Below the pieces are notes generated by a model, which was given only the letters and a program-made list of their open reading frames with translations, was not told the origin of the DNA and searched no databases. From Rhynchopus sp. YZ270_cl-10 (lineage: Eukaryota), in assembly GCA_964035575.1 (NCBI GenBank), contig OZ037836.1, forward strand, positions 1,984,001 to 2,048,000: a stretch of 64,000 nt of DNA, given 5' to 3'. Below, in pieces: positions 4,534 through 43,041 of the stretch. The position numbers were made by a program, and so were the translations under genes. Within the stretch, counting starts at the first letter, position 1, and each line of letters starts with the position of its first letter.

Positions 4534-4542
4534 CCCAATCCC

Positions 4543-8640: not shown

Positions 8641-9726
8641 ATGGAAATATGTGTGAAGAGCTTTGACGGAGAGAAGTACACAGTCGAGGTGGGTGTGGAT
8701 GATACAACTGCGGACATACGGCGGAAGGTGGCGTCTGCAGCAGAGTTGTGCGAAGACGGCTTTGACATGAGCTTCGGAGAGAAGGTGCTGGCCGAAGGAG
8801 ACTACATCACGCAGATGAGTGCTGGGGACACAGTTGTGCTGACGAAGACGAAGTCGCAGAAGGACGACGCCATTGCAGCTCTTCGTGCCTTGGGTGAGAC
8901 AAGGCTGACGTCAGAGAGGTTCAGAGGTCTGACAGATCCCAAGCTGATTCATTTGTTTCTGCAGGCGGAGGTTGTTATTGAGATCCCCGATGGATTCTTG
9001 TCAGGTGGCACGTTCTCAGAACTTGATCTCAGTGGTGTGCCAGGTGTTACCTGTATAGGTAGCTCCCTCCTCCAATACTGCATCTCATTGACCACACTGG
9101 ATATTTCTGGGTGGAACAATGTGACGGACATTAAGTACTCGTTTCTCTCTAACTGCACCGCATTGCGAAGCCTTGACTTGTCTGGGTGGAACAATGTGAC
9201 GCGGGTTGGTCTGCACTTTCTCAACAACTGCAAATCATTGACCACACTGGATATTTCTGGATGGAACAATGTGACGCGGGTTGATGGGTTCTTCCTCTCC
9301 AACTGCACCTCATTGACCATACTGGATATTTCTGGGTGGAGCAATGTGACGCAAATTGAGAACTACTTCCTCTCCTCCTGCACCGCATTGCAAAGCCTTG
9401 ACTTATCTGGGTGGCACAATGTGACGCAGGTTGATGAGTCCTTTCTCTCCAATTGCAGGTCATTGACCACACTTGATATTTCTAGGTGGAATAATGTGAC
9501 GCAAATAGGGAACAACTTTCTCTCCTTCTGCATTGCATTGCAAACCCTAGACTTATCTGGGTTGACCAATGTGAAGGAGATTGCAGCAGGATTACTTTTT
9601 GCATCCACAATGCGTAAAAGCAGCATCAACGTCACAGGATCGAGCAGTGTTGTGTCAGAATATGTGCATGGCGATAGTGGACATAGCCTCGTGGACGATA
9701 CCAAGTGCAAATGTGTGTGCATGTGA
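8641..9726 (+). CDS. UBL-LRR-CaaX protein, 361 aa, about 8 LRRs
   Basis: Same architecture; start placed at the conserved MEICV ATG; ends CKCVCM. Confidence 0.92.
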   Translation: MEICVKSFDGEKYTVEVGVDDTTADIRRKVASAAELCEDGFDMSFGEKVLAEGDYITQMSAGDTVVLTKTKSQKDDAIAALRALGETRLTSERFRGLTDPKLIHLFLQAEVVIEIPDGFLSGGTFSELDLSGVPGVTCIGSSLLQYCISLTTLDISGWNNVTDIKYSFLSNCTALRSLDLSGWNNVTRVGLHFLNNCKSLTTLDISGWNNVTRVDGFFLSNCTSLTILDISGWSNVTQIENYFLSSCTALQSLDLSGWHNVTQVDESFLSNCRSLTTLDISRWNNVTQIGNNFLSFCIALQTLDLSGLTNVKEIAAGLLFASTMRKSSINVTGSSSVVSEYVHGDSGHSLVDDTKCKCVCM

Positions 9727-10696
9727 AGCACCCGGGACATGACAGTTGTGACATACCTTAGGAAGCACCACATGTTTTCCATGCGCGATTTTTGTACTCC
9801 CGTTTTCAGAATCAACAGAGTGTGTACGTCGAGAATGTTCTCTTTTCTTTGTTTTTTCTTCACATTTTTGCAACAAAAACACTGACGTTTGAATGCATCT
9901 ATTGACGTCCTTGAGCTTTCTCTTCTTTGATTTGAAAGTTACTGAAACAAATTTACCACCCTCCACCTTTATTGTGCACTCACCTCATTTCTGTACTTCA
10001 AGCAAAGCAATTTGGTATACCCATTTCTGGGCGTTTTGGGGTGAAAAATGTTATTTTGTGTCTGTTTTACCCCACCGGTGTTTGTTGTCTTATTGTAAGA
10101 TAGCTTTCATCTCTTCATTTGTGTTCTTTGTTATGTGCGTATTTGTATCTTGTTCACCCCTGTAGTCATGATAAAAGCGATGACGCCATTGAGCGACTCA
10201 TAGGCGCATGAGTGATAGACGTTGTCGCTGTGGTATCCCGCCTCGCAGAGAAAGGTGTTTTTTGACACAGCAACTTCGTGAGTCAGTATCGGTCTGCGAA
10301 TCAAATTGAAAACGGCGTGTTTGCGCTTCATATCGCAGAGGATAGAGAAACTGAAAAGTCATGAAAATACAAAACTGAGGAACAGCCACTCTGCCTCAGC
10401 AGGGCAAGTGAACCAAAGGATAGTGGCCACGTTCAAAAGGAACACATAGTGGAGCACATCCTCGGGTGTCACACTAATACATCCAAGCTTTCAAAATGTT
10501 TAAAACAAAAGACCTCTCCCCTTGTAATTGTTTGTTGTATCTCTTGCACACCACACACACACAGCCAGTACGCAACACACTTCACGTTGCAAGGGCATCA
10601 GCAGGAATGTCGAGCGACTTGACTGATCAACGTGTCCCCTTCTTGATTCTTCTTCTTACCCCCAAAACACCTTGCACAAAACAGAGAGACAAAACC

Positions 10697-11836
10697 ATGG
10701 AAATATGTGTGGAGAGCTTTGACGGAGAGAAGTACACAGTCGAGGTGGGTGTGGATGATACAACTGCGGACATACGGCGGAAGGTGGCGTCTGCAGCAGA
10801 GTTGTGCGAAGACGGCTTTGACATGAGCTTCGGTGGGAAGCTGCTGGCCGAAGGAGACGACACGACACAGCTGAGTGCTGGGGACACAGTTGTGCTGAAG
10901 AAGATGCTGTCACAGAAGGACGACGCCATTGCAGCTCTTCGTGACTTGGGTGAGACAAGGCTGACGTCAGAGAGGTTCGAAGCTCTGAGAGATCCCAAGC
11001 TAGTTCATTTGTTTCTGCAGGCGGAGGTTGTTACTGAGATCCCCTATAGCTTCTTGAGAGATGAGACATTCGAAGAACTTGATCTCAGTGGTGTGCCAGG
11101 TGTGACTGCAGTAGGCCACTCCTTCGTCTACAACTGCACTGCGTTGCGCACTGTTGATTTATCTGGGTGGTGCAATGTGACACATATCGGGCCCTACTTT
11201 TTCTCTGACATGCGCGCATTGCAAACACTTGACTTGTCTGGGTGGAACAATGTGACGCGGGTTGATGATCACTTCGCCAACAATTGCACATCACTGACCA
11301 CACTTGATATTTCTGGGTGGAAGAATCTAAAGCATATTGGGAGCTCTTTTCTCTCCAAATGCACCGTATTGCAAACACTTGACTTGTCTGGGTGCAGCAA
11401 GGTAACGCGGGTTGATGACGACTTCCTCTCCAACTGCATCTCATTGACCACACTGGATATTTCTGGGTGGAATGCGACGCAGATGGGAAATTCTTTCCTG
11501 TCCCACTGCACCGCATTGCAAAGCCTTGACTTGTCTGGGTGGCACAATGTGACCCGGGTTGATCTGTACTTTCTCTCCCACTGCACCTCATTGACCACCC
11601 TGGATATTGCTGGGTGGAACAATGTGACGCACATAGGGGACTGTTTCCTCCTCAACTGCAGGGCATTGCGAACCCTTGACATGTCTGGGTGGACGAGTGT
11701 GCAGCACATCGACACAGCTTTCCTAAGCGGCTGCAAAATACCCACAAGCAGCATCAACGTCACCGGATCGAGCAGTGTTCTGTCAGAATATGTGCATGAC
11801 TATAGCTGTAGCCTCCGCAAATGTGTGTGCATGTGA
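10697..11836 (+). CDS. UBL-LRR-CaaX protein, 379 aa, about 9 LRRs
   Basis: Same architecture; ends LRKCVCM. Confidence 0.92.
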   Translation: MEICVESFDGEKYTVEVGVDDTTADIRRKVASAAELCEDGFDMSFGGKLLAEGDDTTQLSAGDTVVLKKMLSQKDDAIAALRDLGETRLTSERFEALRDPKLVHLFLQAEVVTEIPYSFLRDETFEELDLSGVPGVTAVGHSFVYNCTALRTVDLSGWCNVTHIGPYFFSDMRALQTLDLSGWNNVTRVDDHFANNCTSLTTLDISGWKNLKHIGSSFLSKCTVLQTLDLSGCSKVTRVDDDFLSNCISLTTLDISGWNATQMGNSFLSHCTALQSLDLSGWHNVTRVDLYFLSHCTSLTTLDIAGWNNVTHIGDCFLLNCRALRTLDMSGWTSVQHIDTAFLSGCKIPTSSINVTGSSSVLSEYVHDYSCSLRKCVCM

Positions 11837-12407
11837 GGCATGTGCATCTTTCGAGAGGCTGGGCGCTCATTGCGATGTTCAGGGAACGAATTTTAGGCAA
11901 ACTCAGTAACACTGTCACCAGAGGGCTTTGTATTAAAATTAAAAATTTTCAACTCTACTTTTTTACATAATACCAACCGAATATTATTGTGAAGCTGGTG
12001 GTGTTGTTTTATGCACAGTTCTTTGCCTCCTCGCGTGCACCGATACAGCCAAGCATGTTGTTGTTTTATACTAAGTTATGACAAATGCTTTGTGGTGGTA
12101 AATGATTCGGATGTTTTATTGTTTTCGTGGACATGACACTTGCGACATAAATTTATGAGAGAAATATTTTAATGAAAACGCGAAGACGATTCTCGTGCTC
12201 CTCACTTCACCCCCACACTATATCAATGCAACATGTTAGACCGTTTGGTCTGGGAGGGTTTAGGGTTCTAGGTTGAGCAATTACGAGAGGTCAACGAAGC
12301 TTTCAAAAACAAAACAAAAGACCTCTCCCCTTGTAACTGTTTGTTGTCTCTTGCGTACTCTCACCCCCAATTGAAAACACCTGCACGAAACAGAGAGACA
12401 CAAAACC

Positions 12408-13565
12408 ATGGAAATATGTGTGAAGAGCTTTGACGGAGAGAAGTACACAGTCGAGGTGGGTGTGGATGATACAACTGCGGACATACGGCGGAAGGTGGCG
12501 TCTGCAGCAGAGTTGCGCGAAGACGGCTTTGACATGAGCTTCGGAGAGAAGCTGCTGGCCGAAGGAGACTACATCACGCAGCTGAGTGCTGGGGACACAG
12601 TTGTGCTGATGAAGACGAAGTCGCAGAAGGACGACGCCATTGCAGCTCTTCGTGACTTGGGTGAGACAAGGCTGACGTCAGAGAGGTTCGAAGGTCTGAC
12701 AGATCCCAAGCTGATTCATTTGTTTCTGCAGGCGGAGGTTGTTACTGAGACCCCTGATGAATTCCTGAGAGGTGGCAGGTTCTCAGAACTTGAGCTCAGT
12801 GATGTGCCAGGTGTTACCTGTATAGGTGGCTCCTTTCTTACGTGGTGCATCTCATTGACCACACTGGATATTTCTGGGTGGAGCAATGTGTCGCAGATGG
12901 GAAGGTATTTTCTCTCCAACTGCATCTCATTGCGAAGCCTTGACTTGTCTGGGTGGAATAATGTGACGCGAATTGATGAGTACTTTCTCTGCAACTGCAT
13001 CGCATTGAGAAGCCTTGACTTGTCTGGGTGGAACAATGTGACGCGAATTGCTGAGTACTTTCTCGTCAACTGCAAATCATTGACCACACTGGATATTTCT
13101 GGGTGGAACAATGTGACGGAGCTTGGGCACTCTTTTCTCTGCGACTGCAGCGCATTGCGAAGCCTTGACTTGTCTGGGTGGAAGAATGTTACGGGGGTTG
13201 ATAGGTGCTTTCTTTTCAAGTGCACCTCATTGACCACGCTGGATATTTCTGGATGGAACAAGGTGACGCGCATTGATGAGTACTTTCTTTACAAGTGTAC
13301 CTCACTGAAGACACTGGATATTTCTGGGTGGAACAATGTGACGCAGCTGGGAAATTCGTTCCTTTCCAACTGCACTTCATTGAAAACACTTAACTTATCT
13401 GGGTTGACGACTGTTCAGCACATTGGGAAAGATTTCCTAAAAGGATGCAAAATACCCACAAGCAGCATCAACGTCACCGGATCGAGCAGTGTTGTGTCAG
13501 AACATGTGCAGTGCCATAGCGGTAACCTCGTGGACGATACGAAGTGCACATGTGTGTGCATGTGA
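12408..13565 (+). CDS. UBL-LRR-CaaX protein, 385 aa, about 9 LRRs
   Basis: Same architecture; ends CTCVCM. Confidence 0.92.
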   Translation: MEICVKSFDGEKYTVEVGVDDTTADIRRKVASAAELREDGFDMSFGEKLLAEGDYITQLSAGDTVVLMKTKSQKDDAIAALRDLGETRLTSERFEGLTDPKLIHLFLQAEVVTETPDEFLRGGRFSELELSDVPGVTCIGGSFLTWCISLTTLDISGWSNVSQMGRYFLSNCISLRSLDLSGWNNVTRIDEYFLCNCIALRSLDLSGWNNVTRIAEYFLVNCKSLTTLDISGWNNVTELGHSFLCDCSALRSLDLSGWKNVTGVDRCFLFKCTSLTTLDISGWNKVTRIDEYFLYKCTSLKTLDISGWNNVTQLGNSFLSNCTSLKTLNLSGLTTVQHIGKDFLKGCKIPTSSINVTGSSSVVSEHVQCHSGNLVDDTKCTCVCM

Positions 13566-14022
13566 GGCATGTGCATCTTTCGAGAGGCTGGGCGCTCATT
13601 GCGATGTTCAGAGAACTAATTTTACATTGCACGTTGCACTTTGCCCGTACCAAAAATATGAAACTGGGTATTTTTGTTGTGCACAGTTCTTTGCATCCTC
13701 GAGTGCGTACTAATACAACGAAGCTTTCAAAAGCAAAACAAAAGACCTCTCCCCTTGTAACTGTTTGTTGTCTCTTGCACACCACACACACACTCCACCA
13801 CTTCCCTTTTGACACATGCCTACCCACAGAGAGAGACATCCCTCCCGTCCTATCACAGCCTTGCAGCATACAGTTCTGCACACAGAGGTGTCCCCTTTGT
13901 CTTACACCTCTATCGCCTCAGTGGCAACATGTCTGCCTTCTTCTTGTCTCCTTCCCGTTAAGCAGTTGTGTTTCTTCTTGCCCCACCCAAAACACCTGCA
14001 CAAAACAGAGAGACACAAAACC

Positions 14023-15291
14023 ATGGAAATATGTGTGGAGAGCTTTGACGGAGAGAAGTACACAGTCGAGGTGGGTGTGGATGATACAACTGCGGACATA
14101 CGGCGGAAGGTGGCGTCTGCAGCAGAGTTGTGCGAAGACGGCTTTGACATGAGCTTCGGTGGGAAGCTGCTGGCCGAAGGAGACGACACGACGCAGCTGA
14201 GTGCTGGGGACACAGTTGTGCTGACGAAGACGAAGTCGCAGAAGGACGACGCCATTGCAGCTCTTCGTGCCTTGGGTGAGACGGAGCTGACTACAGACAG
14301 GTTCGAAGGTCTTGCAGATCCCAAGCTGGTTCATTTGTTTCTGCAGGCGGAGGTTGTTACTGAGATCCCCGATAGCTTCTTGTCAGGTCGCGCGTTCTCA
14401 GAACTTGATCTCAGCGGTGTGCCAGGTGTTACCTGTATAGGTAGCTCCCTCCTCCAATACTGCATCTCATTGACCACACTGGATATTTCTGGGTGGAGCA
14501 ATGTGACAAAACTTGGGAACCGTTTTCTCTCCGACTGCACCGCATTGCGAACTCTTGACTTGTCTGAGTGGAACAATGTGACGCGGGTTGGTGACCACTT
14601 TCTCGCCAACTGCAAATCACTGACCACACTGGATATTTCTGGGTGGAACAATGTTACGCGGGTTGGTGAGTACTTTCTCTCCGACTGCACCTCATTGACC
14701 ACCCTGGATATTTCTGGGTGGGGCAATGTGACGCAGCTTGGGAACCGTTTTCTCTCCAACTGCATCGCATTGCAAACCCTTGACTTGTCTGGGTGGAACA
14801 ATGTGACCCGGGTTGATGACTTCTTTCTCATCTTCTGCACCTCATTGACCACACTGGATATTTCTGGGTGGAACAATGTGACGCAGCTTGAGTACCGTTT
14901 TCTCTCCCACTGCAGCGCATTGCGAAGCCTTGACTTGTCTGGGTGGAAGAATGTGACGCGAATTGATGACTATTTTCTCTCGAACTGCACCTCACTGAAG
15001 ACACTGGATATTTCTGGATGGAACAATGTGACGCAGCTGGGAAATTCGTTCCTTGCCAACTGTACTGCGTTACAAACACTTGACCTATCTGGGTTGACGA
15101 CTGTTCAGCGCATTGGCACAGACTTCCTGATAGATTGCATTCTACCCACAAGCAGCATCAACGTCACCGGATCGAGCAGTGTTGTGTCAGAATATGTGAA
15201 CAGCCGTAGCCTCATCGAAGATTCCAACGACATTAGCCAAGCCGCCGAAGTGGTCGAAGGAGATACGAAGTGCAAATGTGTGTGCATGTGA
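14023..15291 (+). CDS. UBL-LRR-CaaX protein, 422 aa, about 10 LRRs
   Basis: Same architecture; long acidic tail shared with the 1348 copy; ends CKCVCM. Confidence 0.92.
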   Translation: MEICVESFDGEKYTVEVGVDDTTADIRRKVASAAELCEDGFDMSFGGKLLAEGDDTTQLSAGDTVVLTKTKSQKDDAIAALRALGETELTTDRFEGLADPKLVHLFLQAEVVTEIPDSFLSGRAFSELDLSGVPGVTCIGSSLLQYCISLTTLDISGWSNVTKLGNRFLSDCTALRTLDLSEWNNVTRVGDHFLANCKSLTTLDISGWNNVTRVGEYFLSDCTSLTTLDISGWGNVTQLGNRFLSNCIALQTLDLSGWNNVTRVDDFFLIFCTSLTTLDISGWNNVTQLEYRFLSHCSALRSLDLSGWKNVTRIDDYFLSNCTSLKTLDISGWNNVTQLGNSFLANCTALQTLDLSGLTTVQRIGTDFLIDCILPTSSINVTGSSSVVSEYVNSRSLIEDSNDISQAAEVVEGDTKCKCVCM

Positions 15292-15401
15292 GGCATGTGC
15301 ATCTTTCGAGAGGCTTGGCGCTCATTGCGATGTTCAGAGAACCACTTTTTGATGTTGTACTTCCAAAAGGAAGTGCACTATTGTACGTTTTTTTTCGATT
15401 A

Positions 15402-15846
15402 CTGGGGGGGGTCGAATAAAGCACGTACGTGTTTTATTAGGCGTCCCTACACTTCAGATCCTGAGGTTTAAAAAAAAAAAAAAGTTCGAAAAGGCGAATA
15501 AAGCACGTACGTGCTTTATTCGCCTTTTTGAACTTTTTGGAAAGTTTTTCCAGTCACAATTTTTTTTCGATTTTTTTTTCGCCCAAGAGGTGATTTTGCT
15601 GCATTTCCGAGCCAATCCCGGCTTGTGGTGGGGGATATACGGAAAAATGGACAAAATTTCAGCGACTTAAATTTTCACAAAATACGAACTACCTTGTCAC
15701 AACACAGGAAAAGTTCAAAAAGTCGAATAAAACACGTACGTGCTTTATTCGACGCAAAAAAAAGCAAAAAACCCATTTTTCAAATGCGTGCTTTATTCGA
15801 CGTACGTGCTTTATTTGAATTACCTCGTTTATTCGGCCCCCCCCAG
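15402..15846. mobile_element. Tc1/mariner-type MITE
   Basis: TA|CTGGGGGGGGTCGAATAAA ... TTTATTCGGCCCCCCCCAG|TA; internal AATAAAGCACGTACG repeats; empty site in the paralogous flank near 37830. Confidence 0.85.
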
Positions 15847-16528
15847 TAAGGGTAGCATAAGTTTTTTTTTTGTACGAGTATGCAATACGTCTGGAAATGA
15901 AAGACGCGCTCGTCGGTGGTCATGAGTTTTACCGTTTTCCCCTTCCCCCCTTGTGCTCCACCTCTCCACCGTACTTCAGGACGCGGGTTTTTCGGGGTTT
16001 TCGGGACTTTTGGGGTTTGAAAAAAAAAAAAAAAAAAAAAAACTATGTCATCTGTGGCTGTTCCCTGGGATAGCTGGCCGGGTGGGGATAAGGTCATTTG
16101 GGATCAGATCAAACCCCCAGTCCCCAAAGCAAATGCAATGGAACCGGACACCGAAGATGAGTGCATTTTTCCTTCGTGCGGTGTAACCAAAAGAAAACCG
16201 ACGCAGGAGCTTTTCTTGGAACTGTTTTATTCTCCCTACCCCAACAACATTACATTTCAGAAACACATTGTTTTTTCGTTTTTGTTCACTTTCTTTTCTT
16301 CTCCCTCACACCTGTTTGCTGTGAATTAAATTTTTTCGTTTGCCTGGTCGCATACTGCGAGTTTTCCTGGAAGCGCAGGAAAAATGACTGGGGAGTGTTG
16401 GTGGCTCCGTGACGCCACAGAGCCGGCACACTCGTTGAGTGCCTCACAAAACCTAAAAATTTATTCCGTTTTGATTTTATTTATTGTCTTCACGCTATAT
16501 TGTTGTTGTTGGGTTGGGAAATAAAATC

Positions 16529-17448
16529 ATGCACAAAAAGGGTGTCCTTGGCTGCATGGGCTGCGGCAGACAGTGCACGAAGACGTGCATGCGGAACACG
16601 GGGCTATTCCCTGAAGGGGTGATCACAGACTTCCTCAAGAAGACAGAGAGATGGGTGTGTCCGGTGTGCGCGTGGAGACGTGCGCCAAGAACGAAGGTGA
16701 AAAAGGAAAAGCCGATCGAGCAGCAGCAGGACGAGGAGGACGACGACGCAGAGGACACGGTGGAAGGGCTCCTCGCAGTGATTCCGGAAACCGCTAAGAA
16801 GCTTTTCATGCACACTTTTGCACGTTTGGATTTTCTGCAGCAGGAGAACGAGAGTCTCAAGAAAACTATAGAGTTTATCAAGAAGTCCCAGCAAACGGCA
16901 CTCGACGCTGATTTCTCGCCGTATGTTGTTGCAACCTGGAAAAACATCCAAAATAGCCGCATCAGAAAGGAGATAAGGGAAAAGGTAGGAAAGGCATTCA
17001 GGGAGTCGACCCTACCCACTTTTGATAATGCACTCGAGTATCAAAAGGGCGTCCTAAGATGCTTCGAGGCGCTGGACAACTCCCTGGCGCTGATCGAGGA
17101 CTCAGAGGACCCACCCGCAACCAAGTTCCTGACGCCCATACACAACACCATAGTAGAACTCACCTCGACCACAATTATTGGGGCTAATGCTGCCGGAAGG
17201 ATGATGTACGAGTCTAAAGCAAAGGGATACGCGGTGGATGACTTCTCAAAAGTCATCCAGGCTCGCATTCTGGACACGGCCAAGAAGCAGCCGCACGCAG
17301 AGGTACCGTCGAAGACGCGGGATTCAGGGAGGGACGCCAAGGAGAAGAGAGACGACAGGGACAGGGGAGGAGACGATACGAGGGGGCGCGACCGAGACTA
17401 CTGGGGCAACACGGGAAAGGAGTTAAGAAGGTACGCAGGGCCCAGACG

Positions 17449-17452
<4 letters not shown>
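16529..17452 (+). CDS. Gag-like ORF1 of the YR retrotransposon, with an N-terminal Cys-rich (PHD-like) finger
   Basis: CMGC..C..C...WVCPVC, coiled-coil stretch, basic R/D-rich tail; first ORF of the element. Confidence 0.7.
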
Positions 17453-20784
<3,332 letters not shown>

Positions 20785-21065
20785 GGGTCCTGATGGATGC
20801 GATCAACAAACAACAAACAACGAATAAACAAAGAAGGGGGGGTATTTCATTTTTTTGGTTCCCGTTATCGCCGCACTTTTTTTTGGATTTTCGGAAAAAA
20901 AAAAACTAAAAAAAAAAAAAAACTAAACAGTGCAATTGGGTGGCTTCTATGTGGTTTCGTGACGCGATACCCACCACCACGTCCTCCAATGGGCTGAAAG
21001 TGTTAAAATACGGCATTTTGGAAATAAATTTTTACCATTCAGCCTGTCAGCGTTGACACCCAGCT

Positions 21066-21520
21066 GTAGGGACACTATAGAATCAAGTACAGACAAGAAG
21101 CACCAAGGGTGGGTCAAAGCACAAAACATTGTGTACTCTGTTGATTGCACGCTGTGTGGAAAACGGCGAGCAGTCAACAAGATGCCTTCACGCGATGGAG
21201 AAGGAGGTTAGATGGGTGGTACCGAGGCGGCAGTCCCTTCCCAACGGACCCATTGAACAAGGTATTCTATGTGAAAGAGAACATCAGTTGTGTCGGATGG
21301 GTTCTGTGGACAACAGGAACAGTGAACAACCGCTGTGCACATTGTGGGACAAACAACATTCTCCCGAAGGATCCCGAACACTCGCAACAGTTCAAACAGG
21401 TGCAACCTATCTGCAGCTCGTGCAAAGCACTAGGCCGTCTGCCTCCGGCAAATATGCAGAAAAGAAAGCACGAGCCTTCGCCACACACCGAAACCCTGCA
21501 GCTAAAAAGGCAGCAAAAAA
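21066..21520 (+). pseudogene. Frameshifted Cys-rich fragment resembling the C-terminus of Zator-like transposases
   Basis: VDCTLCGKRRAV, then in another frame YRGGSP...VFYVKENISC...CAHCG...FKQVQPICSSC; lies inside the GGG/TAA TIR element; family match is from memory of motif spacing. Confidence 0.5.
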
Positions 21521-22970
21521 ACATGTACGAAGCCGATGCAAAAAAATCCAGCGGACCAAAACGTTATTGGATGCGACACCGCTTCGGATTACGAGAACGA
21601 CACGAAACAGCGGAAGAGATAAGGGAATGGTGTTTCTTTGGTAAAGTCCGCCTGATTTTTACCCCGCCTATAGGCGCGTAAAGGCTGGGGAAAATGGGTG
21701 GGGTTTGGCCTATACGGGCCTACACGGGCCTGCACGCCCCTTTACGCGGGGTAAAAAATCAGGCGAAAAGTGCCCAGAAATGCCAAAAAGTGCAGAATTT
21801 TGCACTTTTGAGCTGTTTTTGGGGTCAAAAAATCGCTTTTTCGTCACAACTTTTTCCCCCCTTTAGGATTTCCTTAAGGATTTTGTTTAGTTTTTTTTTT
21901 TTTTTAGTTTAGTTTTTTTTCCGCACGCCGCACTTTTTTTTGCGATCCCAAATAACGGGAACCAAAAAAAAAACTTATGCTACCCTAAATTGTTTTTCTG
22001 GTCTTATTACATACAACGCAGAAGTACGTCACGACAGCTTTGTTTTGTTTGTTTTGTTTTGCGATGTGTGGACGAGCCAATGCATCTTGCACGTTTTTCC
22101 CATACCCTTCTCTCAACTCCATCCGTAGGGTAAGTTAAGGTAAAAGGTACAGTATCGCAATCGATGCACGGTGAGGGAACTGGGTCTCAGTGGTGTGCCA
22201 TGTGTGAATAAAATAATAAAACCTACATTCTTGAACTATTCTCCCGACTGATTTTCGTTGGACGCATCCCTTTCTGCAATTCAATTCAAGCACCAACGTG
22301 TGTGCATGTACGGCACAGTGTGTTCCCTCAAGATAGTGCTTGCCTTTTACTTTTATTCGGACATCTCAAACTAATCTTTGTTTTTTGTAATTTTGATTTC
22401 CCTTGTTCTCTTCTGCGCACGAACAACGTATTTTTGCCCTTTTGCTGCCCCCTTTTTTGTACCACAGTGGACAGGCTGAGTACCCCCTGCACAACTATGT
22501 TTGTGCACGAGAGAGACCTCATGGAGCTTTCAAGGTTTCGTTCTTTCGTTCAATTGCCCCTTCATTTGTGTGTGGGAATATTTTTGTGTTGAGAGAGCAA
22601 TGTGCAGGGTTGGATCCCTGTAGTCATGATAAAAGCGATGCCGCCATTGAGCGACTCATAGGCGCATGAGTGATAGACGTTGTCGCTGTGGTATCCCGCC
22701 TCGCAGAGGAAGGTGTTTTTTGACACAGCAACTTCGTGAGTCAGTATCGGTCTGCGAATCAAATTGAAAACGGCGTGTTTGCGCGTCATATCGCAGAGGA
22801 TAGAGAAACTGAAAAGTCTTGAAAATAAAATACCCCCTAGCGTGTAATTTGTTGATCGCATCCAATCAAAAACAAAACAAAAGACCTCTCCCCTTGTAAC
22901 TGTTTGTTGTCTCTTGCGTACTCTCACCCCCAATTGAAAACACCTGCACAAAACAGAGAGACACAAAACC

Positions 22971-31604: not shown

Positions 31605-32062
31605 ATAACTATTTATTCGAGTGAAATAAGAACTATTTTATTTCACGCGCCACTAAAAAGGTGCCCGAGTGCGTTATTTCCCGAGCGAAGCGAGGGGAAT
31701 AAGAGTCACGAGGGTGCCTTTTTAGTGGCAAGTGCAAGAAAATGTTCTTATTTCACTCAATATGTAATTTTATTCCACAAGTGAAAAACGTATTTATGGT
31801 CGTAACTGGCCTAAACGTTGAGCCTAGCACCCACTTTTCACTTTCACGCTTTTTGGGGTAAAATTACGAACAAAAACAGCGTGAAAAAAAAAATATTTTA
31901 TTTGCAAAGGCATTTTGCAGGCAATTTTTTTTTTTTCACTCCGTGATATTTTATTTCACTCTCTGGGTTACCCTAGTGCAATTTGCGTGAAATAAAACGA
32001 ATCTTATTTCACTCACTTTTTAGGCCAGTTACGACCATAAAACGTTTTTCACGCGTGGTATA
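31605..32062. mobile_element. Non-autonomous palindromic element (Crypton-like architecture)
   Basis: Imperfect hairpin 31619-31758 centred on GCGAAGC; second inverted pair 31775-31815/32019-32058; interrupts an A-run of the 638-bp repeat unit; ATAA at both ends, no TIR. Confidence 0.6.
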
Positions 32063-34078
32063 AAAATTTTTTTTTCCAGGCTTGAAAAAGTAGTTGTCGA
32101 AAAAAAAATTTTTTTTTTTTTTTTGAAAATTTTTTTCTCGACATCTACTTTTCCAAGCCTGGGAAAATACCGGTAGGGGTACGTCATAGAGTAAAAACCA
32201 ATGTAGGAAAATACCAGTTCTTTTTCCAGGCTTGAAAAAGTAGATGTCGAAAAAAAATTTTTGGTCGAAAAAAAAAAAATTTTTTTTTGGACCCTCGGAC
32301 CACCTGGCGGGGCCTGTGTTGAAGAAATGTTGAAAAAAAACCGAAAATTTGGGCTCAAATGGGCATTTTCATGCAGGACCTCTGAAATGTGAATGATTCG
32401 TTTTTTGGGCAGAGAAGTGCGTTTTAGGTGCCCACAGAAGGCCAAAACATCAATTTTTTTGTGTTTTTGGCATGTTTGGACACCCAAGGACCCACTACCA
32501 GGGGTGACTTTTTTTTGGCCTGAAATTTGCCTTTGCCAAAATCAAAAATGAGTTTTGTGAAGGAATTTGCTAAGGAAAACACCCAATAATAGGCCACTGT
32601 AGCAGTGCATATGATTCACCCACAGATGCTCAAAACATCAAAATTTTGCCGTTTTTTGAATTTTTCGGTGCACAAGGTCCCAAGGTCAGGCCCAAAAAAA
32701 AATTTTTTTTTTCCAGGCTTGAAAAAGTAGTTGTCGAAAAAAAAAATTTTTTTTTTTTTTTGAAAATTTTTTTCTCGACATCTACTTTTCCAAGCCTGGG
32801 AAAATACCGGTAGGGGTACGTCATAGAGTAAAAACCAATGTAGGAAAATACCAGTTCTTTTTCCAGGCTTGAAAAAGTAGATGTCGAAAAAAAATTTTTG
32901 GTCGAAAAAAAAAATTTTTTTTTTTGGACCCTCGGACCACCTGGCGGGGCCTGTGTTGAAGAAATGTTGAAAAAAAACCGAAAATTTGGGCTCAAATGGG
33001 CATTTTCATGCAGGACCTCTGAAATGTGAATGATTCGTTTTTTGGGCAGAGAAGTGCGTTTTAGGTGCCCACAGAAGGCCAAAACATCAATTTTTTTGTG
33101 TTTTTGGCATGTTTGGACACCCAAGGACCCACTACCAGGGGTGACTTTTTTTTGGCCTGAAATTTGCCTTTGCCAAAATCAAAAATGAGTTTTGTGAAGG
33201 AATTTGCTAAGGAAAACACCCAATAATAGGCCACTGTAGCAGTGCATATGATTCACCCACAGATGCTCAAAACACCAAAATTTTGCCGTTTTTTGCATTT
33301 TTCGGTGCACAAGGTCCCAAGGTCAGGCCCAAAAAAAAAATTTTTTTTTCCAGGCTTGAAAAAGTAGTTGTCGAAAAAAAAAAATTTTTTTTTTTTTTTT
33401 GAAAATTTTTTTCTCGACATCTACTTTTCCAAGCCTGGGAAAATACCGGTAGGGGTACGTCATAGAGTAAAAACCAATGTAGGAAAATACCAGTTCTTTT
33501 TCCAGGCTTGAAAAAGTAGATGTCGAAAAAAAATTTTTGGTCGAAAAAAAAAAATTTTTTTTTTGGACCCTCGGACCACCTGGCGGGGCCTGTGTTGAAG
33601 AAATGTTGAAAAAAAACCGAAAATTTGGGCTCAAATGGGCATTTTCATGCAGGACCTCTGAAATGTGAATGATTCGTTTTTTGGGCAGAGAAGTGCGTTT
33701 TAGGTGCCCACAGAAGGCCAAAACATCAATTTTTTTGTGTTTTTGGCATGTTTGGACACCCAAGGACCTACTACCAGGGGTGACTTTTTTTTGGCCTGAA
33801 ATTTGCCTTTGCCAAAATCAAAAATGAGTTTTGTGAAGGAATTTGCTAAGGAAAACACCCAATAATAGGCCACTGTAGCAGTGCGTATGGTTCACCCACA
33901 GATGGTCAAAACATCAAAATTTTGCCGTTTTTTGCATTTTTCGGTGCACAAGGACCCAAGGTCAGGGCCAAAAAAAAAAATTTTTTTTCCAGGCTTGGAA
34001 AAGTAGTTGTCGAAAAAAAAAAAAATTTTTTTTTTTTTTGAAAATTTTTTCTCGACATCTACTTTTCCAAGCTTGGAA
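32063..34078. repeat. About 638-bp tandem repeat, roughly 3 copies plus a partial unit at about 31413-31604
   Basis: TGAAATTTGCCTTTGCCAAAATC recurs at 32521, 33158 and 33797. Confidence 0.95.
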
Positions 34079-35645
34079 AAAAAACTGATATTTACTGGTA
34101 TCAACTGGTATTAACTGAGATTTGACGTAGCCTCCAAAGAATCCAAAAAACCTCAGAAATACATGTTCGTGAATAAACATTTGCAAGTCAAAATTCAACC
34201 ACAATACGGTCATTTTGTGCATACCCTGTAGTAGTGGCTAGAGAGCACGCATGCAGACCTGTTCCTTGCAATTTCCAGTGTTGTGTTTATCAATGCATGC
34301 ATCCAGAGGACCTCTGGTTTGCGGAATCGTAGGCACTCCTGAGCAAAAATGAAATCGGTTTTTGACCCAAAATCGGGGTGTGTGGGCCTAATTTGCTCCA
34401 AATTTGGCCGAAAATTGGGATTTTTCTGAAAATTTCATTGTGCTCAGCAAAAATCCTTGCTTTTTTGAAGAATTTTCCAAAAAATATGCTATACCCCCTA
34501 TGACTGGACCCAACTCCCCTCACCCTTTTTTTTTTTCACCCAAAAGGGCCGGAAATTTTACACACGAATACACAAACTTACGGACCCCCCTTGGACTTTT
34601 TTAAACTTGGGACATTTTTACGTCCCAGAATATTTACGTCCCAGAATTGTCTGTGTGACCTTCCCCCCTCCCTCACCCATGCACTTCGGTGCAAACCCAA
34701 ACATGTCCAACAAACAAAAAAAATGTGCATACTTGGGCCGGTTATGATCCCTCCGCCAACCACCCACACCCCCAAAAATTGACAAGTACCCGGAAAACCG
34801 CCCGAACAATTCTGGGACGTAACAAAACTGGGACAATTGGGGAAAAATCTGAAACTTGGGACATTTTTACGCCCCAGAATTTTTACGATTACGGTAATAC
34901 CAACAGAATATTATTGTGAAGCTGGTGATGTTTTTTTATGCACAGTTCTTTGCACCCTCGCGTGCGTACACTGATACAACCAAGCATGTTGTTGTTTTAT
35001 ACTAAGTTTAGACAAATGCTTTGGTGGGAATTGATTTGAATGTCTTTTTGTTTTCGTGGACATCACACTTGCGACATAAATTTATGATAGAAATCTTTTA
35101 GTGAAAACGCGAAGACGATTCTCGTGCTCCTCACTTCACCCCCACACCATTTCAATGCAACATGTTAGACCGTTTGGTCTGGGAGGGTTTAGGGTTCTTC
35201 TCTGTCTCAGTGATATGTTGAGCCAGCACGAGAGGTCAACGAAGCTTTCAAAAACAAAACAAAAGACCTCTCCCCTTGCAACTGTTTGTTGTCTCTTGCG
35301 TACTCTCACCCCCAATTGAAAACACCTTGCACAAAACAGAGAGACACAAAACCATGGAAATATGTGTGAAGAGCTTTGACGGAGAGAAGTACACAGTCGA
35401 GGTGGGTGTGGATGATACAACTGCGGACATACGGCGGAAGGTGGCGTCTGCAGCAGAGTTGCGCGAAGACGGCTTTGACATGAGCTTCGGAGAGAAGGTG
35501 ATGGCCGAAGGAGACTACATCACGCAGCTGAGTGCTGGGGACACAGTTGTGCTGACGAAGAAGACGAAGTCGCAGAAGGACGACGCCATTGCAGCTCTTC
35601 GTGACTTGGGTGAGACGGAGCTGACGTCAGACAGGTTCAGAGGTC

Positions 35646-36242
35646 CCGACGGCGGACCGCCCCCCATAGCACATTTTTGCGGTGCACGGGCGTACGGGAT
35701 TAGTATCTTTTTTTGAGAGAACCCAAGAGCGGCCAGGTCCTGGACAAGTACGTTGTGCTTTTAGACCTACAAACTGTCTGGGGTGGTGGGATCGGGGCGA
35801 AGGGTGCTTCCCGGGACCCCAATATCCTACCACAAGGAGCTCGAGTCGTGCATGGAATGCAGGGTACTCTGAGCCGATTACTTCCACAACTCCCAGATCC
35901 CAAGACCTCCACGGGGGGCAGGCCTCCACGGAAACCCGCGACCGCCGACACCTTAGCTCCGTACTGCCTCTGTCTGTAACCTGCCGGTCCCCCACCTACC
36001 TACGCTTTTTGTGGTGTCTTTTTACGACGGTGGACCAAGGGGGCTTTGCAGTGCAGTCAACGCCGACGGAGCGAGACTCGATTGTGACCGGGTGAAAAGG
36101 GAACCTTAGCCAGCGCTAACCAGCGGCAGTTTTGACTCAGGGAGGAGTTTCTCACCGCAGACTGGCGACACACCCCCACTTTTTCGGGGTGGCTGCATTC
36201 CTCTTCGGAACGGGGTGTTCCATCCTATTTTTAAAAACGTTT
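35646..36242. mobile_element. 597-bp insertion with a perfect 20-bp target-site duplication
   Basis: GTCAGACAGGTTCAGAGGTC at 35626-35645 and 36243-36262; insert absent from paralogs. Confidence 0.9.
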
Positions 36243-36809
36243 GTCAGACAGGTTCAGAGGTCTGAGAGATCCCAAGCTGATTCATTTGTTTCTGCAGGCG
36301 GAGGTTGTTACTGAGACCCCTGATGAATTCCTGAGAGGTGGCAGGTTCTCAGAACTTGATCTCAGTGGTGTGCCAGGTGTTACCTGTATAGGTGGCTCCT
36401 TCCTTCAGTGGTGCATCTCATTGACCACAGTCGATATTTCTGGGTGGAACAATGTGACGCAGATGGGAAGGTATTTTCTCTCCAACTGCATCACATTGCA
36501 AACCCTTGACTTGTCTGGGTGGAACAAAGTGACGCGAATTGATGCGTACTTTCTCTGCAACTGCGTCGCATTGCGAAGCCTGGACTTGTCTGGGTGGAAC
36601 AATGTGACGCGAATTGATGAGTACTTTCTCGTCAACTGCAAATCATTGACCACACTGGATATTTCTGGGTGGAACAATGTGACGGAGCTTGGGCACTCTT
36701 TTCTCTGCGACTGCAGCGCATTGCGAAGCCTTGACTTGTCTGGGTGGAAGAATGTTACGGGGGTTGATAGGTGCTTTCTTTTCAAGTGCACCTCATTGAC
36801 CACGCTGGA

Positions 36810-37422
36810 GGGGACAAAAACGTGAGGTGGCAGCCCCCCGGCATTTTTGCCCTGGCGTCCCCGGATATAATCTCTTTTTTGAGTGAACGAAGGCCACGCG
36901 TGGGATGGTTGCATTGCACTTTTGCAAACCCGGGCACATGATACTGGAGGGTCCAAAGCAACTGGAGGAGGTGTATGCTGGGCTTTTTGTGCCCTCAGGG
37001 ATTTAAGCGACCCTGCACCTACTTTACGACCATGCAGAGCTTTTGCTTTTCTTTTCTTTGCTTTTCTTTGCTTTTTGTAGGTGCTAACCTGCGGCAGTGG
37101 TTTGCATCAGTTGGGTGTTCCACTCACCGCAGTTTAGAGAATTAGGAGATGCCAGTCATTCGTTCCTCCCATTGGAATGACTGGTGGTTTTATTGTTGTT
37201 TATTTCTTTTGACGCTGCCAGAGTGCGGACCTTGACCTGGCTTATATACTAACCTAGGCCACCAGCGGTGGTATACGGCCCCTGTTCACTTAGGTGTCGC
37301 TTCTTTGTTGGGTATAAGTCAGCAAATGGGATCAAGCCACTCTCTGGCACACCGTGGTGCCATCCTTCCCTTTTGCTGGTTTTTCTTTTTGCGGGGGTGG
37401 ATCACGTTTTTCAAGTTTAATA
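36810..37422. mobile_element. 613-bp insertion with an imperfect 18-bp flanking duplication
   Basis: CTCATTGACCACGCTGGA / CTCACTGAAGACACTGGA; short subterminal inverted repeat AAAAACGTGA...TCACGTTTTT. Confidence 0.8.
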
Positions 37423-38865
37423 CTCACTGAAGACACTGGATATTTCTGGATGGAACAATGTGACGCAGCTGGGAAATTCGTTCCTTTCCAACTGTACTGC
37501 ATTACAAACACTTGACTTATCTGGGTTGACGACTGTGCAGCGCATTGGCACAGACTTCCTGATAGATTGCATTCTACCCACAAGCAGCATCAACGTCACC
37601 GGATCGAGCAGTGTTGTGTCAGAATATGTGAACAGCCGTAGCCTCATCGAAGATTCCAACGACCTTAGCCAAGCCGCCGAAGTGGTCGAAGGAGATACGA
37701 AGTGCAAATGTGTGTGCATGTGAGGCATGTGCATCTTTCGAGAGGCTAGGCGCTCATTGCGATGTTCAGAGAACCACTTTTTGATGTTGTACTTCCAAAA
37801 GGAAGTGCACTATTGTACGTTTTTTTTTTTGGATTAGATTGTTTTTCTGGTCTTATTACATACAACGCAGAAGTACGTCACGACAGCTTTGTTTTGTTTT
37901 GTTTTGTTTTGTTTTGCGATGTGTGGACGAGCCAATGCATCTTGCACGTTTTTCCCATACCCTTCTCTCAACTCCATCCGTAGGGTAAGTTAAGGTACAA
38001 GGTACAGGATCGCAATCGATGCACGGGGAGGGAACTGGGTCTCAGTGGTGTGCCATGTGTGAATAAAATAATAAAACCTACATTCTTGAACTATTCTCCT
38101 GACTGATTTTCGTTGGACGCATCCCTTTCTGCAATTCAATTCAAGCACCAACGTGTGTGCATGTCAGGCACAGTGTGTTCCCTCAAGATAGTGCTTGCCT
38201 TTTACTTTTATTCGGACATCTCAAACTAATCTTTGTTTTTTGTCATTTTGATTTCTCTTGTTCTCTTCTGCGCACGAACAACGTATTTTTGCCCTTTTGC
38301 TGCCCCCTTTTTTGTACCACAGTGGACAGGCTCAGTACCCCCTGCACAACTATGCTTGTGCACGAGAGAGACCTCATGGAGCTTTCAAGGTTTCGTTCTT
38401 TCGTTCAATTGCCCCTTCATTTGTGTGTGTGAATATTTTTGTGTTGTGAGAGAAATGTGCAGGGTTGGACCCCTGTAGTCATGATAAAAGCGATGCCGCC
38501 ATTGAGCGACTCATAGACGCATGAGTGATAGACGTTGTCGCTGTGGTATCCCGCCTCGCAGAGGAAGGTGTTTTTTGACACAGCAACTTCGTGAGTCAGT
38601 ATCGGTCTGCGAATCAAATTGAAAACGGCGTGTTTGCGCGTCATATCGCAGAGGATAGAGAAACTGAAAAGTCATGAAAATAACAAAAGTATGGTGCCAA
38701 GTTCACAAGGAACACATAGTGGAGCACATCCTCGGGTGTCCACACTAATACAACGAAGCTTTCAAAACAAAACAAAAGACCTCTCCCCTTGTAACTGTTT
38801 GTTGTCTCTTGCGTACTCTTGCCCCCAATTGAAAACACCTGCACAAAACAGAGAGACACAAAACC

Positions 38866-39795
38866 ATGGAAATATGTGTGAAGAGCTTTGACGGAGAGAA
38901 GTACACAGTCGAGGTGGGTGCGGATGATACAACTGCGGACATACGGCGGAAGGTGGCGTCTGCAGCAGAGTTGCGCGATGACGGCTTTGACATGAGCTTC
39001 GGTGGGAAGCTGCTGGCCGAAGGAGACGACACGACGCAGCTGAGTGCTGGGGACACAGTTGTGCTGACGAAGACGAAGTCGCAGAAGGACGACGCCATTG
39101 CAGCTCTTTGTGACTTGGGTGAGACAAGGCTGACGTCAGAGAGGTTCAACGGTCTGAGAGATCCCAAGCTGGTTCATTTGTTTCTGCAGGCGGAGGTTGT
39201 TACTGAGATCCCCAATCACGTCTTGAGAGATGAGACATTCGAAGAACTTGATCTCAGTGGTGTGCCAGGTGTGACTGACGTAGGCCACTCCTTCCTCGAA
39301 AGCTGCAGGTCATTGCACACTGCTGACTTATCTGGGTGGAGCAATGTCACATGTACTTCATCACACTTTCTCTCCAAATGCACCTCACTGACCACACTGG
39401 ATCTATCTGGGTGGAACAATGTGACGTACATTGGGATGTACTTCCTCTCCACCTGCACTGCATTGCGAACCCTTGACTTGTCTGGGTGGAACAATGTGAG
39501 GCTGGTTGATGACTACTTCCTCTCATACTGCACCTCGTTGACCACACTGGATATTTCTGGGTGGAACAATGTGACGCGTATCTGTAGCTTGTTTCTCTTC
39601 AACTGCACTGCATTGCGAAGCCTTGACATGTCTGGGTGGACGAGTGTGCAGCACATAGGTACAGACTTCCTAACATGCAACATACCCACAAGCAGCATCA
39701 ACATCACCGGATCGAGCAGTGTTGTGTCAGAATATGTGCATGACTATAGCTGTAGCCTCGTGGACGATACCAAGTGCAAATGTGTGTGCATGTGA
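38866..39795 (+). CDS. UBL-LRR-CaaX protein, 309 aa, about 6 LRRs
   Basis: Same architecture; ends CKCVCM. Confidence 0.92.
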   Translation: MEICVKSFDGEKYTVEVGADDTTADIRRKVASAAELRDDGFDMSFGGKLLAEGDDTTQLSAGDTVVLTKTKSQKDDAIAALCDLGETRLTSERFNGLRDPKLVHLFLQAEVVTEIPNHVLRDETFEELDLSGVPGVTDVGHSFLESCRSLHTADLSGWSNVTCTSSHFLSKCTSLTTLDLSGWNNVTYIGMYFLSTCTALRTLDLSGWNNVRLVDDYFLSYCTSLTTLDISGWNNVTRICSLFLFNCTALRSLDMSGWTSVQHIGTDFLTCNIPTSSINITGSSSVVSEYVHDYSCSLVDDTKCKCVCM

Positions 39796-40883: not shown

Positions 40884-42066
40884 AATATTGTTATGAAACT
40901 GGAGATGTTTAGTTGTGCACAGTTGAGGTGATCCAGCGCACACTGTTCCACACGTTTCACACCGTGAAGACGTGTGAAAACATGTGAAAGAAACCATGTG
41001 AAAACACCAAGTTTTTGTTCTGGAGGAATCTACTCAGAGTGCGCGAAGCAGTTTTTCTTTCACTTTCGTACACACTTTTTCACACCGTGAAACCATGTGA
41101 AAATGTGTGAAACCATGTGAAACCAAGTGAAAATGTGTGAAAAGGCGTGAGACTGGATCACCTCAACAGTTCTTTGTACCCTGGCGTGCGTACACTGATG
41201 CAACCAAGCATGTTGTCGTTTTGTACTACGTTAAGACAATAGTGCTTTATTCGGGCATCTCAACTTATTATCTTTGTTTTTTTATAATTTTGATTTCTCT
41301 TGTTCTCTTCTGCGCACGAACAACGTATTTTTGCCCTTTTGCTGCTCGTGCACAACTATGTTTGTGCACGAGAGAGACCTCATGGAGCTTTCAAGGTTTC
41401 GTTCTTTCGTTCAATTGCCCCTTCATTTGTGTGTGGGAATATTTTTGTGTTGCAAGATTAATGTGCAGGGTTGTACCCCTGTAGTCATGATAAAAGCGAT
41501 GACGCCATTGAGCGACTCATAGGCGCATGAGTGATAGACGTTGTCGCTGTGGTATCCCGCCTCGCAGAGGAAGGTGTTTTTTGACACAGCAACTTCGTGA
41601 GTCAGTATCGGTCTGCGAATCAAATTGAAAACGGCGTGTTTGCGCGTCATATCGCAGAGGATAGAGAAACTGAAAAGTCTTGCAAATAACAAAAGTACGG
41701 TGCCAAGTTCACAAGGAACACATAGTGGAGCACATCCTCGGGTGTCCACACGAGTGCAACGAAGCTTCAAAAACAAAACAAAAGACCTCTCCCCTTGTAA
41801 CTGTTTGTTGTCTCTTGCACACCATACACACACTCCCTACCACTTCCCTTCGGACACTTGCCTACACGACTGAGAGAGACATCCCTCCCGTCCCATCACA
41901 GCCTTGCAGCATACAGTTCTGCACACAGAGGTGTCCCCTTTGTCTTACACCTCTATCGTCTCAGTGGCAACATGTCTGCCTTCTTCTTGTCTCCTTCCCG
42001 TTCTGCGAGTTGTGTTTCTTCTTGCCCCACCCAAAACACCTGCACAAAACAGAGAGACACAAAAGC

Positions 42067-43041
42067 ATGGAAATATGTGTGAAGAGCTTTGACGGAGAGA
42101 AGTACACAGTCGAGGTGGGTGTGGATGATACAACTGCGGACATACGGCGGAAGGTGGCGTCTGCAGCAGAGTTGTGCGAAGACGGCTTTGACATGAGCTT
42201 CGGTGGGAAGCTGCTGGCCGAAGGAGACGACACGACGCAGCTGAGTGCTGGGGACACAGTTGTGCTGACGAAGACGAAGTCGCAGAAGGACGACGCCATT
42301 GCAGCTCTTCGTGACTTGGATGAGACAAGGCTGACGTCAGAGAGGTTCAACGGTCTGAGAGATCCCAAGCTGGTTCATTTGTTTCTGCAGGCGGAGGTTG
42401 TTACTGAGATCCCCTATAGCTTCTTGAGAGATGAGACATTCGAAGAACTTGATCTCAGTGGTGTGCCAGGTGTGACTGCAATAGGCCACTCCTTCGTCTT
42501 CAACTGCACTGCGTTGCGCACTGTTGATTTATCTGGGTGGAGCAATGTGGCACATATCGGGCCCTACTTTTTCTCTGACATGCGCGCATTGCAAACACTT
42601 GACTTGTCTGGGTGGAGCAATGTGACGCGTATTGATGTGCACTTCGTCTACAAATGCACGTCACTGACCACACTTGATATTTCTGGGTGGAAGAACCTAA
42701 AGCATATTGGGAGCTCTTTTCTCTGCGACTGCACTGCATTGCGAACCCTTGACTTGTCTGGGTGGAAGAATGTGAGGCTGGTTGATGAGTACTTTCTCTC
42801 CAACTGCACCTCATTGACCACACTGGATATTTCTGGGTGGAACAATGTGACGCAAATAGGATACTATTTCCTCTACAACTGCTGCAGATTGCGAACCCTT
42901 GACATGTCTGGGTGGACGAGTATGCAGCACATAGAATCATACTTCCTGATAGATTGCAATCTACCCACAAGCAGCATCAACGTCACCGGATCGAGCAGTG
43001 TTGTGTCAGAATGTGTGCATGGCATAGCCCTAACCTCGTAG
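42067..43041 (+). CDS. UBL-LRR protein, 324 aa, about 7 LRRs; 1-bp deletion puts the CaaX out of frame
   Basis: Stops at HGIALTS*; the KCVCM codons survive out of frame at 43056-43073. Confidence 0.8.
   Translation: MEICVKSFDGEKYTVEVGVDDTTADIRRKVASAAELCEDGFDMSFGGKLLAEGDDTTQLSAGDTVVLTKTKSQKDDAIAALRDLDETRLTSERFNGLRDPKLVHLFLQAEVVTEIPYSFLRDETFEELDLSGVPGVTAIGHSFVFNCTALRTVDLSGWSNVAHIGPYFFSDMRALQTLDLSGWSNVTRIDVHFVYKCTSLTTLDISGWKNLKHIGSSFLCDCTALRTLDLSGWKNVRLVDEYFLSNCTSLTTLDISGWNNVTQIGYYFLYNCCRLRTLDMSGWTSMQHIESYFLIDCNLPTSSINVTGSSSVVSECVHGIALTS

Follow-up and report, generated by a model that had tools for sequence, protein, structure and literature searches.

The gene array and its proteins

We describe a window of 64,000 nucleotides of DNA from Rhynchopus sp. 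YZ270_cl-10 (contig OZ037836.1, positions 1,984,001 to 2,048,000 of the forward strand), which carries a tandem array of genes encoding a ubiquitin-like domain (UBL) followed by leucine-rich repeats (LRRs). Ten of these genes, two of them damaged, belong to a class that we call A-type. Genes are named below by their first position in the window, and all genes and exchanged tracts lie on its forward strand. An identical start sequence opens nine A-type genes (1348, 8641, 10697, 12408, 14023, 22971, 35354, 38866 and 42067), and a tenth enters from the left edge, with its 5' end beyond the window and its last five LRRs and CaaX tail at 1-507. Two B-type paralogs begin at 51708 and 55475.

A-type proteins consist of a UBL, a three-helix cap, 6 to 13 repeats of the BspA/TpLRR type, and a tail ending in CVCM, which is a CaaX motif. 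The genes are intronless, with uninterrupted open frames of 75-bp period, and eight of the ten frames in the window read openly through to the CaaX tail. There are 13 LRRs in 1348-2838, 10 in 14023-15291, nine each in 10697-11836, 12408-13565 and 22971-24098, eight in 8641-9726, seven in 42067-43072 and six in 38866-39795. Genes 10697 and 22971 are close paralogs. In 42067 a frameshift ends the frame at 43041, ahead of the CaaX-coding tail, and 35354-37723 is a pseudogene in three pieces, holding two insertions of about 600 bp (insertion 1, 35646-36242; insertion 2, 36810-37422). The B-type gene at 55475-56668 has a basic tail in place of CaaX, which is common to several paralogs outside the window and which we liken to a nuclear localization signal (NLS). 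The other B-type gene (51708-54441) is interrupted by about 1.6 kb of inserted DNA, which has a 16-bp direct repeat.

The Pfam LRR_5 model scores above its cut-off in all seven A-type proteins searched (58-168 bits against 27.7). An AlphaFold model of the 8641 protein, built from a 99-sequence alignment, shows a ubiquitin fold and then a solenoid, with a predicted local distance difference test score of 90. Its residues 1-72 match ubiquitin chains with a root-mean-square deviation (rmsd) of 1.4-1.6 over about 71 residues. The UBL is an integral beta-grasp fold that has no terminal di-glycine, the chain continuing instead into the helical cap. The best matches to the solenoid are TpLRR and Bacteroides BspA-type proteins, led by 6mlx (Z 20.1, rmsd 3.0, 197 residues aligned) and followed by 4fs7 (Z 19.9). 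BspA/TpLRR repeats are typically about 23 residues long; the A-type unit, of 25 amino acids with Trp at position 6, is a variant of them.

A homolog search scored 7995 candidates and returned 247 proteins at E<=1e-20, which puts the predicted family at a size of at least 247 members. Among the 120 matches listed, three belong to the window itself and 117 have ENA as their sole source; 45 are encoded on a contig equal in length to that of the window. A CaaX-like motif ends 72 of 92 A-type proteins, and in 61 of those it is CVCM. The first 152 residues gave 256 matches in the whole library, and of 20 examined among the 150 listed, 15 were ENA proteins and five were polyubiquitins or LRR-only matches. 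On this partial check, the UBL-LRR fusion looks lineage-restricted. An Atlas search yielded no match of 0.9 or more, and a metagenome scan one weak locus (L001) alone. Searches of the literature gave no account of a UBL-TpLRR-CaaX family, and the terms "Leucine-rich" and "LRR" are absent from the main texts of PMC10161547 and bioRxiv 10.64898/2026.01.29.702485, whose supplements might include it. The family and its architecture thus appear to be undescribed, whereas the recombination process discussed below is already known.

Mosaic structure of the genes

The initial annotation of this array had proposed that its genes are mosaics of one another. Every motif that it named is present in the copies to which it was assigned, each on a tract of common DNA. 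Such tracts are 50-400 bp long and mostly 95-99% identical.

Gene 14023 has a start like that of 1348, a cap and first LRR like those of 8641, and an end like those of 35354 and 1348. It carries TTDRFEGLADPK and the acidic tail in common with 1348, and TCIGSSLLQYCISL in common with 8641. At the DNA level it matches 1348 over 382 bp with nine mismatches, then 8641 over 193 bp with eight (14315-14507 against 8933-9125), and its last 195 bp return to the 1348 match with three. Gene 1348 has a divergent LRR block between 14023-like ends, and may equally be a 14023-like shell that carries a foreign block. In each trio, any of the three genes may be the recombinant.

Pseudogene 35354 combines 12408-type LRRs (LRR1-6) with a 14023-type C-terminus, on tracts of 552 and 405 bp. 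Its 20 mismatches to 12408 all fall in the first 360 bp, and the final 192 bp (13052-13243 in 12408, 36618-36809 in the pseudogene) are identical. The 405-bp tract, with six mismatches, lies at 14991-15395 and 37423-37827, and its last 195 bp also occur in 1348. Because the 192-bp tract is identical in both genes, it shows at least one recent exchange event. The pseudogene and the intact gene have exchanged DNA, and either one may have been the donor. The 3' end of 12408 is in turn common with the gene at 1-507.

Gene 42067 starts like 10697 and 22971, with YSFLRDETF and PYFFSDMRAL in all three, and then carries NVRLVD as does 38866. It matches 22971 over 271 bp with five mismatches, and then 38866 over 125 bp with six (42729-42853 against 39453-39577), one 75-bp unit out of step. 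The gene at 1-507 fits this second tract almost equally, at 117 against 119 of the 125 positions.

Informative sites switch partner accordingly, with breakpoints that were chosen after inspection of the data: 14023 sides with 1348 at 14 of 17 sites (14:3) and then with 8641 at 31 of 32 (1:31) before its tail returns to 1348; 35354 sides with 12408 at 32 of 39 (32:7) and then with 14023 at 32 of 35 (3:32); and 42067 sides with 22971 at 48 of 50 (48:2) and then, one repeat off, with 38866 at 10 of 13 (3:10). Intergenic blocks are also mixed, as had been noted. The block at 21986-22970 is common with 37835-38865 (92%), and further mixed blocks include 11968-12407 with 34895-35353 and 8352-8640 with 13735-14022.

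The register of exchange, originally given as 72 bp, is 75 bp. The repeat period is 75 bp (25 amino acids), with a weaker 150-bp alternation, and three units measure 72 bp. Of the 15 tract offsets that were tabulated, 11 are divisible by 75 and four span one shortened 72-bp unit. Among 14 pairs of units with near-identical variable cores, 11 are at equal repeat index, and two of the remaining three involve fragments without a known index. Recent exchanges thus occurred mostly between aligned genes at equal repeat positions, rather than by free shuffling of repeats. Exchange also occurred below the size of a unit, as the unit 2 cores of 12408 and 35354 are identical in a framework that is only 83% identical. 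Framework codons are uniform even at silent sites, so that every repeat supplies homology. At position 4, for example, Ser is encoded by TCT in all 50 instances, whereas in three neighbouring genes TCT makes up 12 of 66 Ser codons.

Tests for recombination

The single tree that would account for all segments without recombination was rejected by three approaches. In the pairwise homoplasy index (PHI) test, none of 2000 permutations reached the observed value for either the N-terminal part (91 sites) or the C-terminal part (60 sites; p=0.0005), and third codon positions alone gave p=0.011. For each of four segments the best-fitting tree is the segment's own, and the approximately unbiased (AU) test rejects the trees of other segments in all 12 cross-comparisons. 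Three of the four segments also reject the concatenated tree, which the fourth accepts. Rate blocks and homoplasy were allowed for by simulation on a single tree, with 150 data sets for each of two site-rate profiles. A triplet statistic exceeded every simulated maximum (21-22) in four of nine genes, clearly for 12408, 14023 and 35354 (37-39) and narrowly for 1348 (23).

Comparisons of smaller and larger scope agree with these tests. The nearest relative of an internal repeat unit lies in another gene for 50 of 62 units, and eight of the 12 exceptions belong to 1348. Across 55 family proteins, those of 97 tried that could be divided into three segments, pairwise identity in the cap and in the C-terminal end correlates at only 0.14, and nearest neighbours agree in 19 of the 55. 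The genes are true mosaics whose segments have different histories, and recombination almost certainly made them. The gene conversion or unequal crossover originally suggested is supported by the rejection of one tree, the near-identical tracts that switch partner, and the range of 6 to 13 repeats.

Assembly and public sequencing runs

Chimeras of assembly or polishing might also produce mosaics. We compared the window with short contigs from four public runs (X1-X4), of which X4 comes from another study and has another organism label. None covers a whole gene, and no listed contig bridges a switch with 31 letters on either side, as an explanation by chimeras would allow. However, most common tracts differ at 1-5% of letters, each copy having private differences, and therefore do not represent a single assembled sequence placed twice. 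Several switches lie inside 1.3 kb, and the window proteins are placed on a 2.16-Mb contig.

The sole long identical tract, of 192 bp, is at about double depth in X1, where contigs inside it have depths of 246 and 229 against 118-122 for single-occurrence pieces. This argues against an assembly duplicate and supports two real copies. One X1 contig ends at 36809, exactly where the 12408 and 35354 copies part. A contig of X4 runs unbranched from the tract 25 letters into insertion 2, which supports that junction in an independent study. Taken together, these data make chimeras a most improbable source of the mosaics.

In X2 and X3, a contig over the 14023 tail differs by one letter. Exact cover is near zero in X1 and X4 at the acidic-tail bin 37644-37697 and at the last bin, although such holes prove nothing. 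At 36726-36834 and 11965-12968, an X4 contig is unbranched where X1 branches. As a hint only, the X1 and X4 samples may carry different arrays at the second copy of the tract and near 12408. The search of sequencing runs listed no RNA run with this sequence, a result that has no bearing on expression.

Mobile elements in the array

Insertion 1 is flanked by a perfect 20-bp target repeat. Insertion 2 is situated at the Leu/Asp boundary of an LRR and has unequal flanks, the left corresponding to the 12408 junction and the right to that of 14023 (4 of 18 letters differ). Its contigs in X1 have about 20-25 times single-locus depth, a figure that is indicative only. We detected no relatedness signal between the two insertions, whose global alignment score equals the best of 30 shuffles. 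Splicing out of insertion 2 was considered and set aside, as splice-like sites judged by eye, not computed, gave no open frame.

The element of insertion 2 interrupts P0070, P0073 and P0077 at the same Leu/Asp phase, and a second element interrupts P0075, P0081 and P0109 there. Two elements thus share one phase in seven paralogs, comprising the window copy and six of nine truncated proteins that were picked by eye. These recurrences reflect either a site preference or spread by conversion. Of 37 early-stopping N-terminal pieces, 12 end at residues 70-77 and seven at 93-95.

Site-preferring elements could drive part of the shuffling, by cutting or inserting at the repeat boundary so that recombination joins genes there. 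The position of insertion 2, at the switch from 12408-like to 14023-like sequence and with unequal flanks, is suggestive of this, as are the shared phase in seven paralogs and the recurrence of further elements near residue 95 and at the UBL end. However, no element is found at the switches of the other mosaics. The first 72 bp past insertion 2 fit 12408 and 14023 equally, and therefore the breakpoint is not fixed to the element. Also, conversion that uses the framework could spread a single old insertion from unit to unit with its phase kept. We consider a driving role for these elements very unlikely.

Recurring insertion sites near residue 95 and where the UBL ends were observed at 35646-36242 and 51921-53553, and in P0171, P0181, P0185, P0198, P0207, P0204 and P0214. 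The UBL reads on in frame into a reverse transcriptase in P0214 and into an OTU-domain frame in P0204. The array also contains a DIRS-like retrotransposon (16484-21681) with overlapping RVT_1 and tyrosine recombinase frames and two unassigned open reading frames, and a 450-bp element (15399-15849) with terminal inverted repeats and internal palindromes, whose contig depth is high in all four runs. An inverted repeat pair of about 750 bp and 89% identity (58986-59692 and 63267-64000) possibly represents the ends of a DNA transposon.

Variable positions and selection

In 315 units from 92 A-type proteins, entropy reaches 3.0-3.7 bits at repeat positions 14, 15, 18 and 19, and positions 2, 4, 5, 6, 16, 20 and 23 are almost fixed. 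We compared nonsynonymous with synonymous change (pN/pS) in 48 of the 62 units of the window, taken as 24 disjoint pairs after pairs below 80% identity had been excluded. The ratio is 2.1 at the four variable positions (bootstrap 1.15-7.2) and 0.5 in the framework (bootstrap 0.32-0.87). It is likely that selection acts on the variable positions.

The same recombination might instead be a by-product of a repeat-rich, transposon-laden array under birth and death, with no role in recognition. Intergenic DNA is as mixed as the genes, broken copies and insertions are numerous, and uniform TCT codons in the framework are expected from homogenisation or recent expansion. However, such an array would not be expected to show pN/pS of 0.5 in the framework and above 1 in the variable core, or open frames to the CaaX tail in eight of ten A-type copies. 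We regard this alternative as rather unlikely.

Proposed mechanism and function

The explanation to which we give somewhat better than even weight is that tandem UBL-LRR-CaaX genes become mosaics through ectopic gene conversion and unequal crossover, and encode diversifying, predicted lipid-anchored binders at the inner face of the membrane. The most probable process is ordinary homologous recombination between misaligned paralogs, giving both conversion and crossover. Landing sites for strand invasion would be offered by the repeat framework, by the 5' part, which is nearly identical between genes (95-99%), and by the constant stretch that precedes the tail. Most exchange would occur in gene register, in tracts of 50-400 bp, and a minority would slip by 75-bp steps and alter the number of repeats. 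Point mutation under diversifying selection would renew about four residues per repeat, which recombination would then re-sort. The LRR solenoid might bind variable foreign proteins, whether of prey, of viruses or of intracellular bacteria, which the constant UBL might connect to machinery of the ubiquitin system.

Several results weigh against this explanation. Pfam's ubiquitin model is above its cut-off in only two of seven A-type proteins. In the simulations, five of nine genes, including 42067, stay within the null, for an alignment that omits the middle repeats, where the 42067 tract lies. A comparison with 89 outside paralogs gave few exact matches of at least 19 amino acids, most of them in constant stretches, and therefore recent exchange looks local. 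The four-position ratio rests on just 5.3 synonymous differences, and a wider set of seven positions has a nonsynonymous-to-synonymous rate ratio (dN/dS) of only 1.23. Moreover, the variable positions were picked by amino-acid entropy, which biases pN upward, and therefore the selection signal is suggestive, not proof. The variable residues follow the second short strand, the Leu-Asp-Leu strand being nearly invariant, and could not be mapped to one surface of the solenoid, also with passages of PMC9525666 taken into account. Finally, broken copies, namely two of the ten A-type genes and several paralogs outside the window, are equally well explained by relaxed turnover.

The weakest step of the explanation is function. 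A CaaX motif that ends in Met, together with upstream cysteines, is a typical signal for farnesylation and palmitoylation at the cytosolic face. In joining a constant UBL head to a variable binding body, the proteins resemble adaptors of the ubiquitin system under arms-race selection. Diplonemids are known to harbour bacterial endosymbionts. Because of these features and the NLS-like tail of B-type proteins, we favour an intracellular binder of non-self proteins over neutral turnover or a surface coat, as a tentative assignment that falls short of an even chance.

Display outside the cell is a further possibility, in which the proteins are variable adhesins or sensors and mosaicism varies a surface coat. 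The BspA/TpLRR fold is consistent with such a role, and a CaaX-bearing BspA protein of Entamoeba is reported at the cell surface (PMC2843621, PMC5349171). However, the A-type protein opens directly with the ubiquitin fold, and its model shows no signal or membrane segment, as judged from secondary structure by inspection and with no predictor used. According to PMC5349171 itself, prenylation is not described as an outer-face anchor, and B-type paralogs carry the basic NLS-like tail. Surface display therefore seems distinctly improbable. About as improbable is the most far-reaching form of the intracellular reading, a combinatorial, immune-like repertoire in which hundreds of UBL-TpLRR binders would be directed to membranes (by CaaX) or to the nucleus (by the basic tail), would re-sort fast enough to differ between cultures, and would have breaks seeded at the repeat boundary by site-preferring elements.

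How free-living protists recognize prey, endosymbionts and viruses is largely open, and a large, lineage-restricted, recombining and apparently positively selected family of binders in a diplonemid is a concrete candidate. Its intronless genes with constant heads and tails should be easy to tag, to amplify and to follow between cultures.

Surrounding genes and repeats

The window also contains intronless housekeeping genes, a large-subunit ribosomal RNA fragment and the tyrosine-recombinase retrotransposon. Genes for a microbial-type PARG, TFIIS and an MFS transporter lie to the right of the array (43534-48395). Besides itself, only five relatives of the transporter, which is at 47058, reach E<=1e-40; the three named ones come from Diplonema ambulator, Flectonema neradi and Lacrimia lanifica (54-56% identity), which makes a diplonemid host likely. 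An ankyrin-repeat gene inside the array (6245-7401) is apparently in pieces. At 3563-4832, 5621-5856 and 32062-34081 there are long microsatellites, with periods of 5, 9 and 7, as well as a tandem repeat of roughly 640 bp (97-98% identity). The ribosomal RNA fragment (49009-49560) is degenerate; dispersed 28S pieces are reported in D. papillatum (PMC10161547).

Comparison with known systems

In plant NLR and RLP clusters, agnathan VLRs, and nematode and plant F-box adaptors, a constant module is joined to a hypervariable LRR or substrate-binding part, with exchange between paralogs and positive selection. The window family resembles these in outline, but has no NB-ARC, no F-box and no known programmed assembly, and its variable residues lie off the canonical LxxLxL strand.

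Trypanosome RHS (retrotransposon hot spot) genes (PMC7563717) are likewise a euglenozoan multigene family with a conserved N-terminus, a variable C-terminus, mosaics, and many pseudogenes. They also have a recurring retroelement insertion site, of which the recurring sites seen in translations of the present genes, possibly not independent insertions, are reminiscent. However, RHS proteins are nuclear, lack LRRs, and have no homology to the window family. The RHS-type ATP/GTP-binding motif has no Pfam match in the window proteins, which match UBL and LRR models only.

Entamoeba and Trichomonas have large families of BspA-like TpLRR proteins that vary in repeat number (PMC2843621, PMC5349171). 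Several Entamoeba members end in CaaX, as here, whereas Trichomonas members do not. These organisms are host-associated parasites for which surface roles are reported, and the present repeats are 25-amino-acid units. The word "ubiquitin" is absent from the main text of PMC2843621 on BspA-like families, whereas a UBL is present here. In architecture, the CaaX-bearing Entamoeba set is the closest that has been described.

The process, gene conversion together with unequal crossover, here in an LRR array, is already known from Tetrahymena LRR genes and from trypanosome RHS genes (PMC6564038, PMC7563717). Recombination alone would therefore not surprise specialists, and it is the UBL-TpLRR-CaaX architecture and its variable positions for which we found no description. 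The Tetrahymena genes, built of 90-bp exons (PMC6564038), show a lineage-specific LRR expansion in a protist, variable repeat number, ectopic recombination, units that are closer to those of other genes, and an association with non-LTR elements, and an intracellular role toward bacteria has been proposed for them. They differ in having one repeat per exon and phase-2 introns, whereas the window family is intronless, with 75-bp BspA/TpLRR units, a UBL head and a CaaX tail, and forms a local tandem array. Tetrahymena LRRs are reported to be mostly under purifying selection, whereas pN/pS at the variable sites here is above 1. With these differences, the Tetrahymena LRR expansion with its ectopic recombination is the closest described case.

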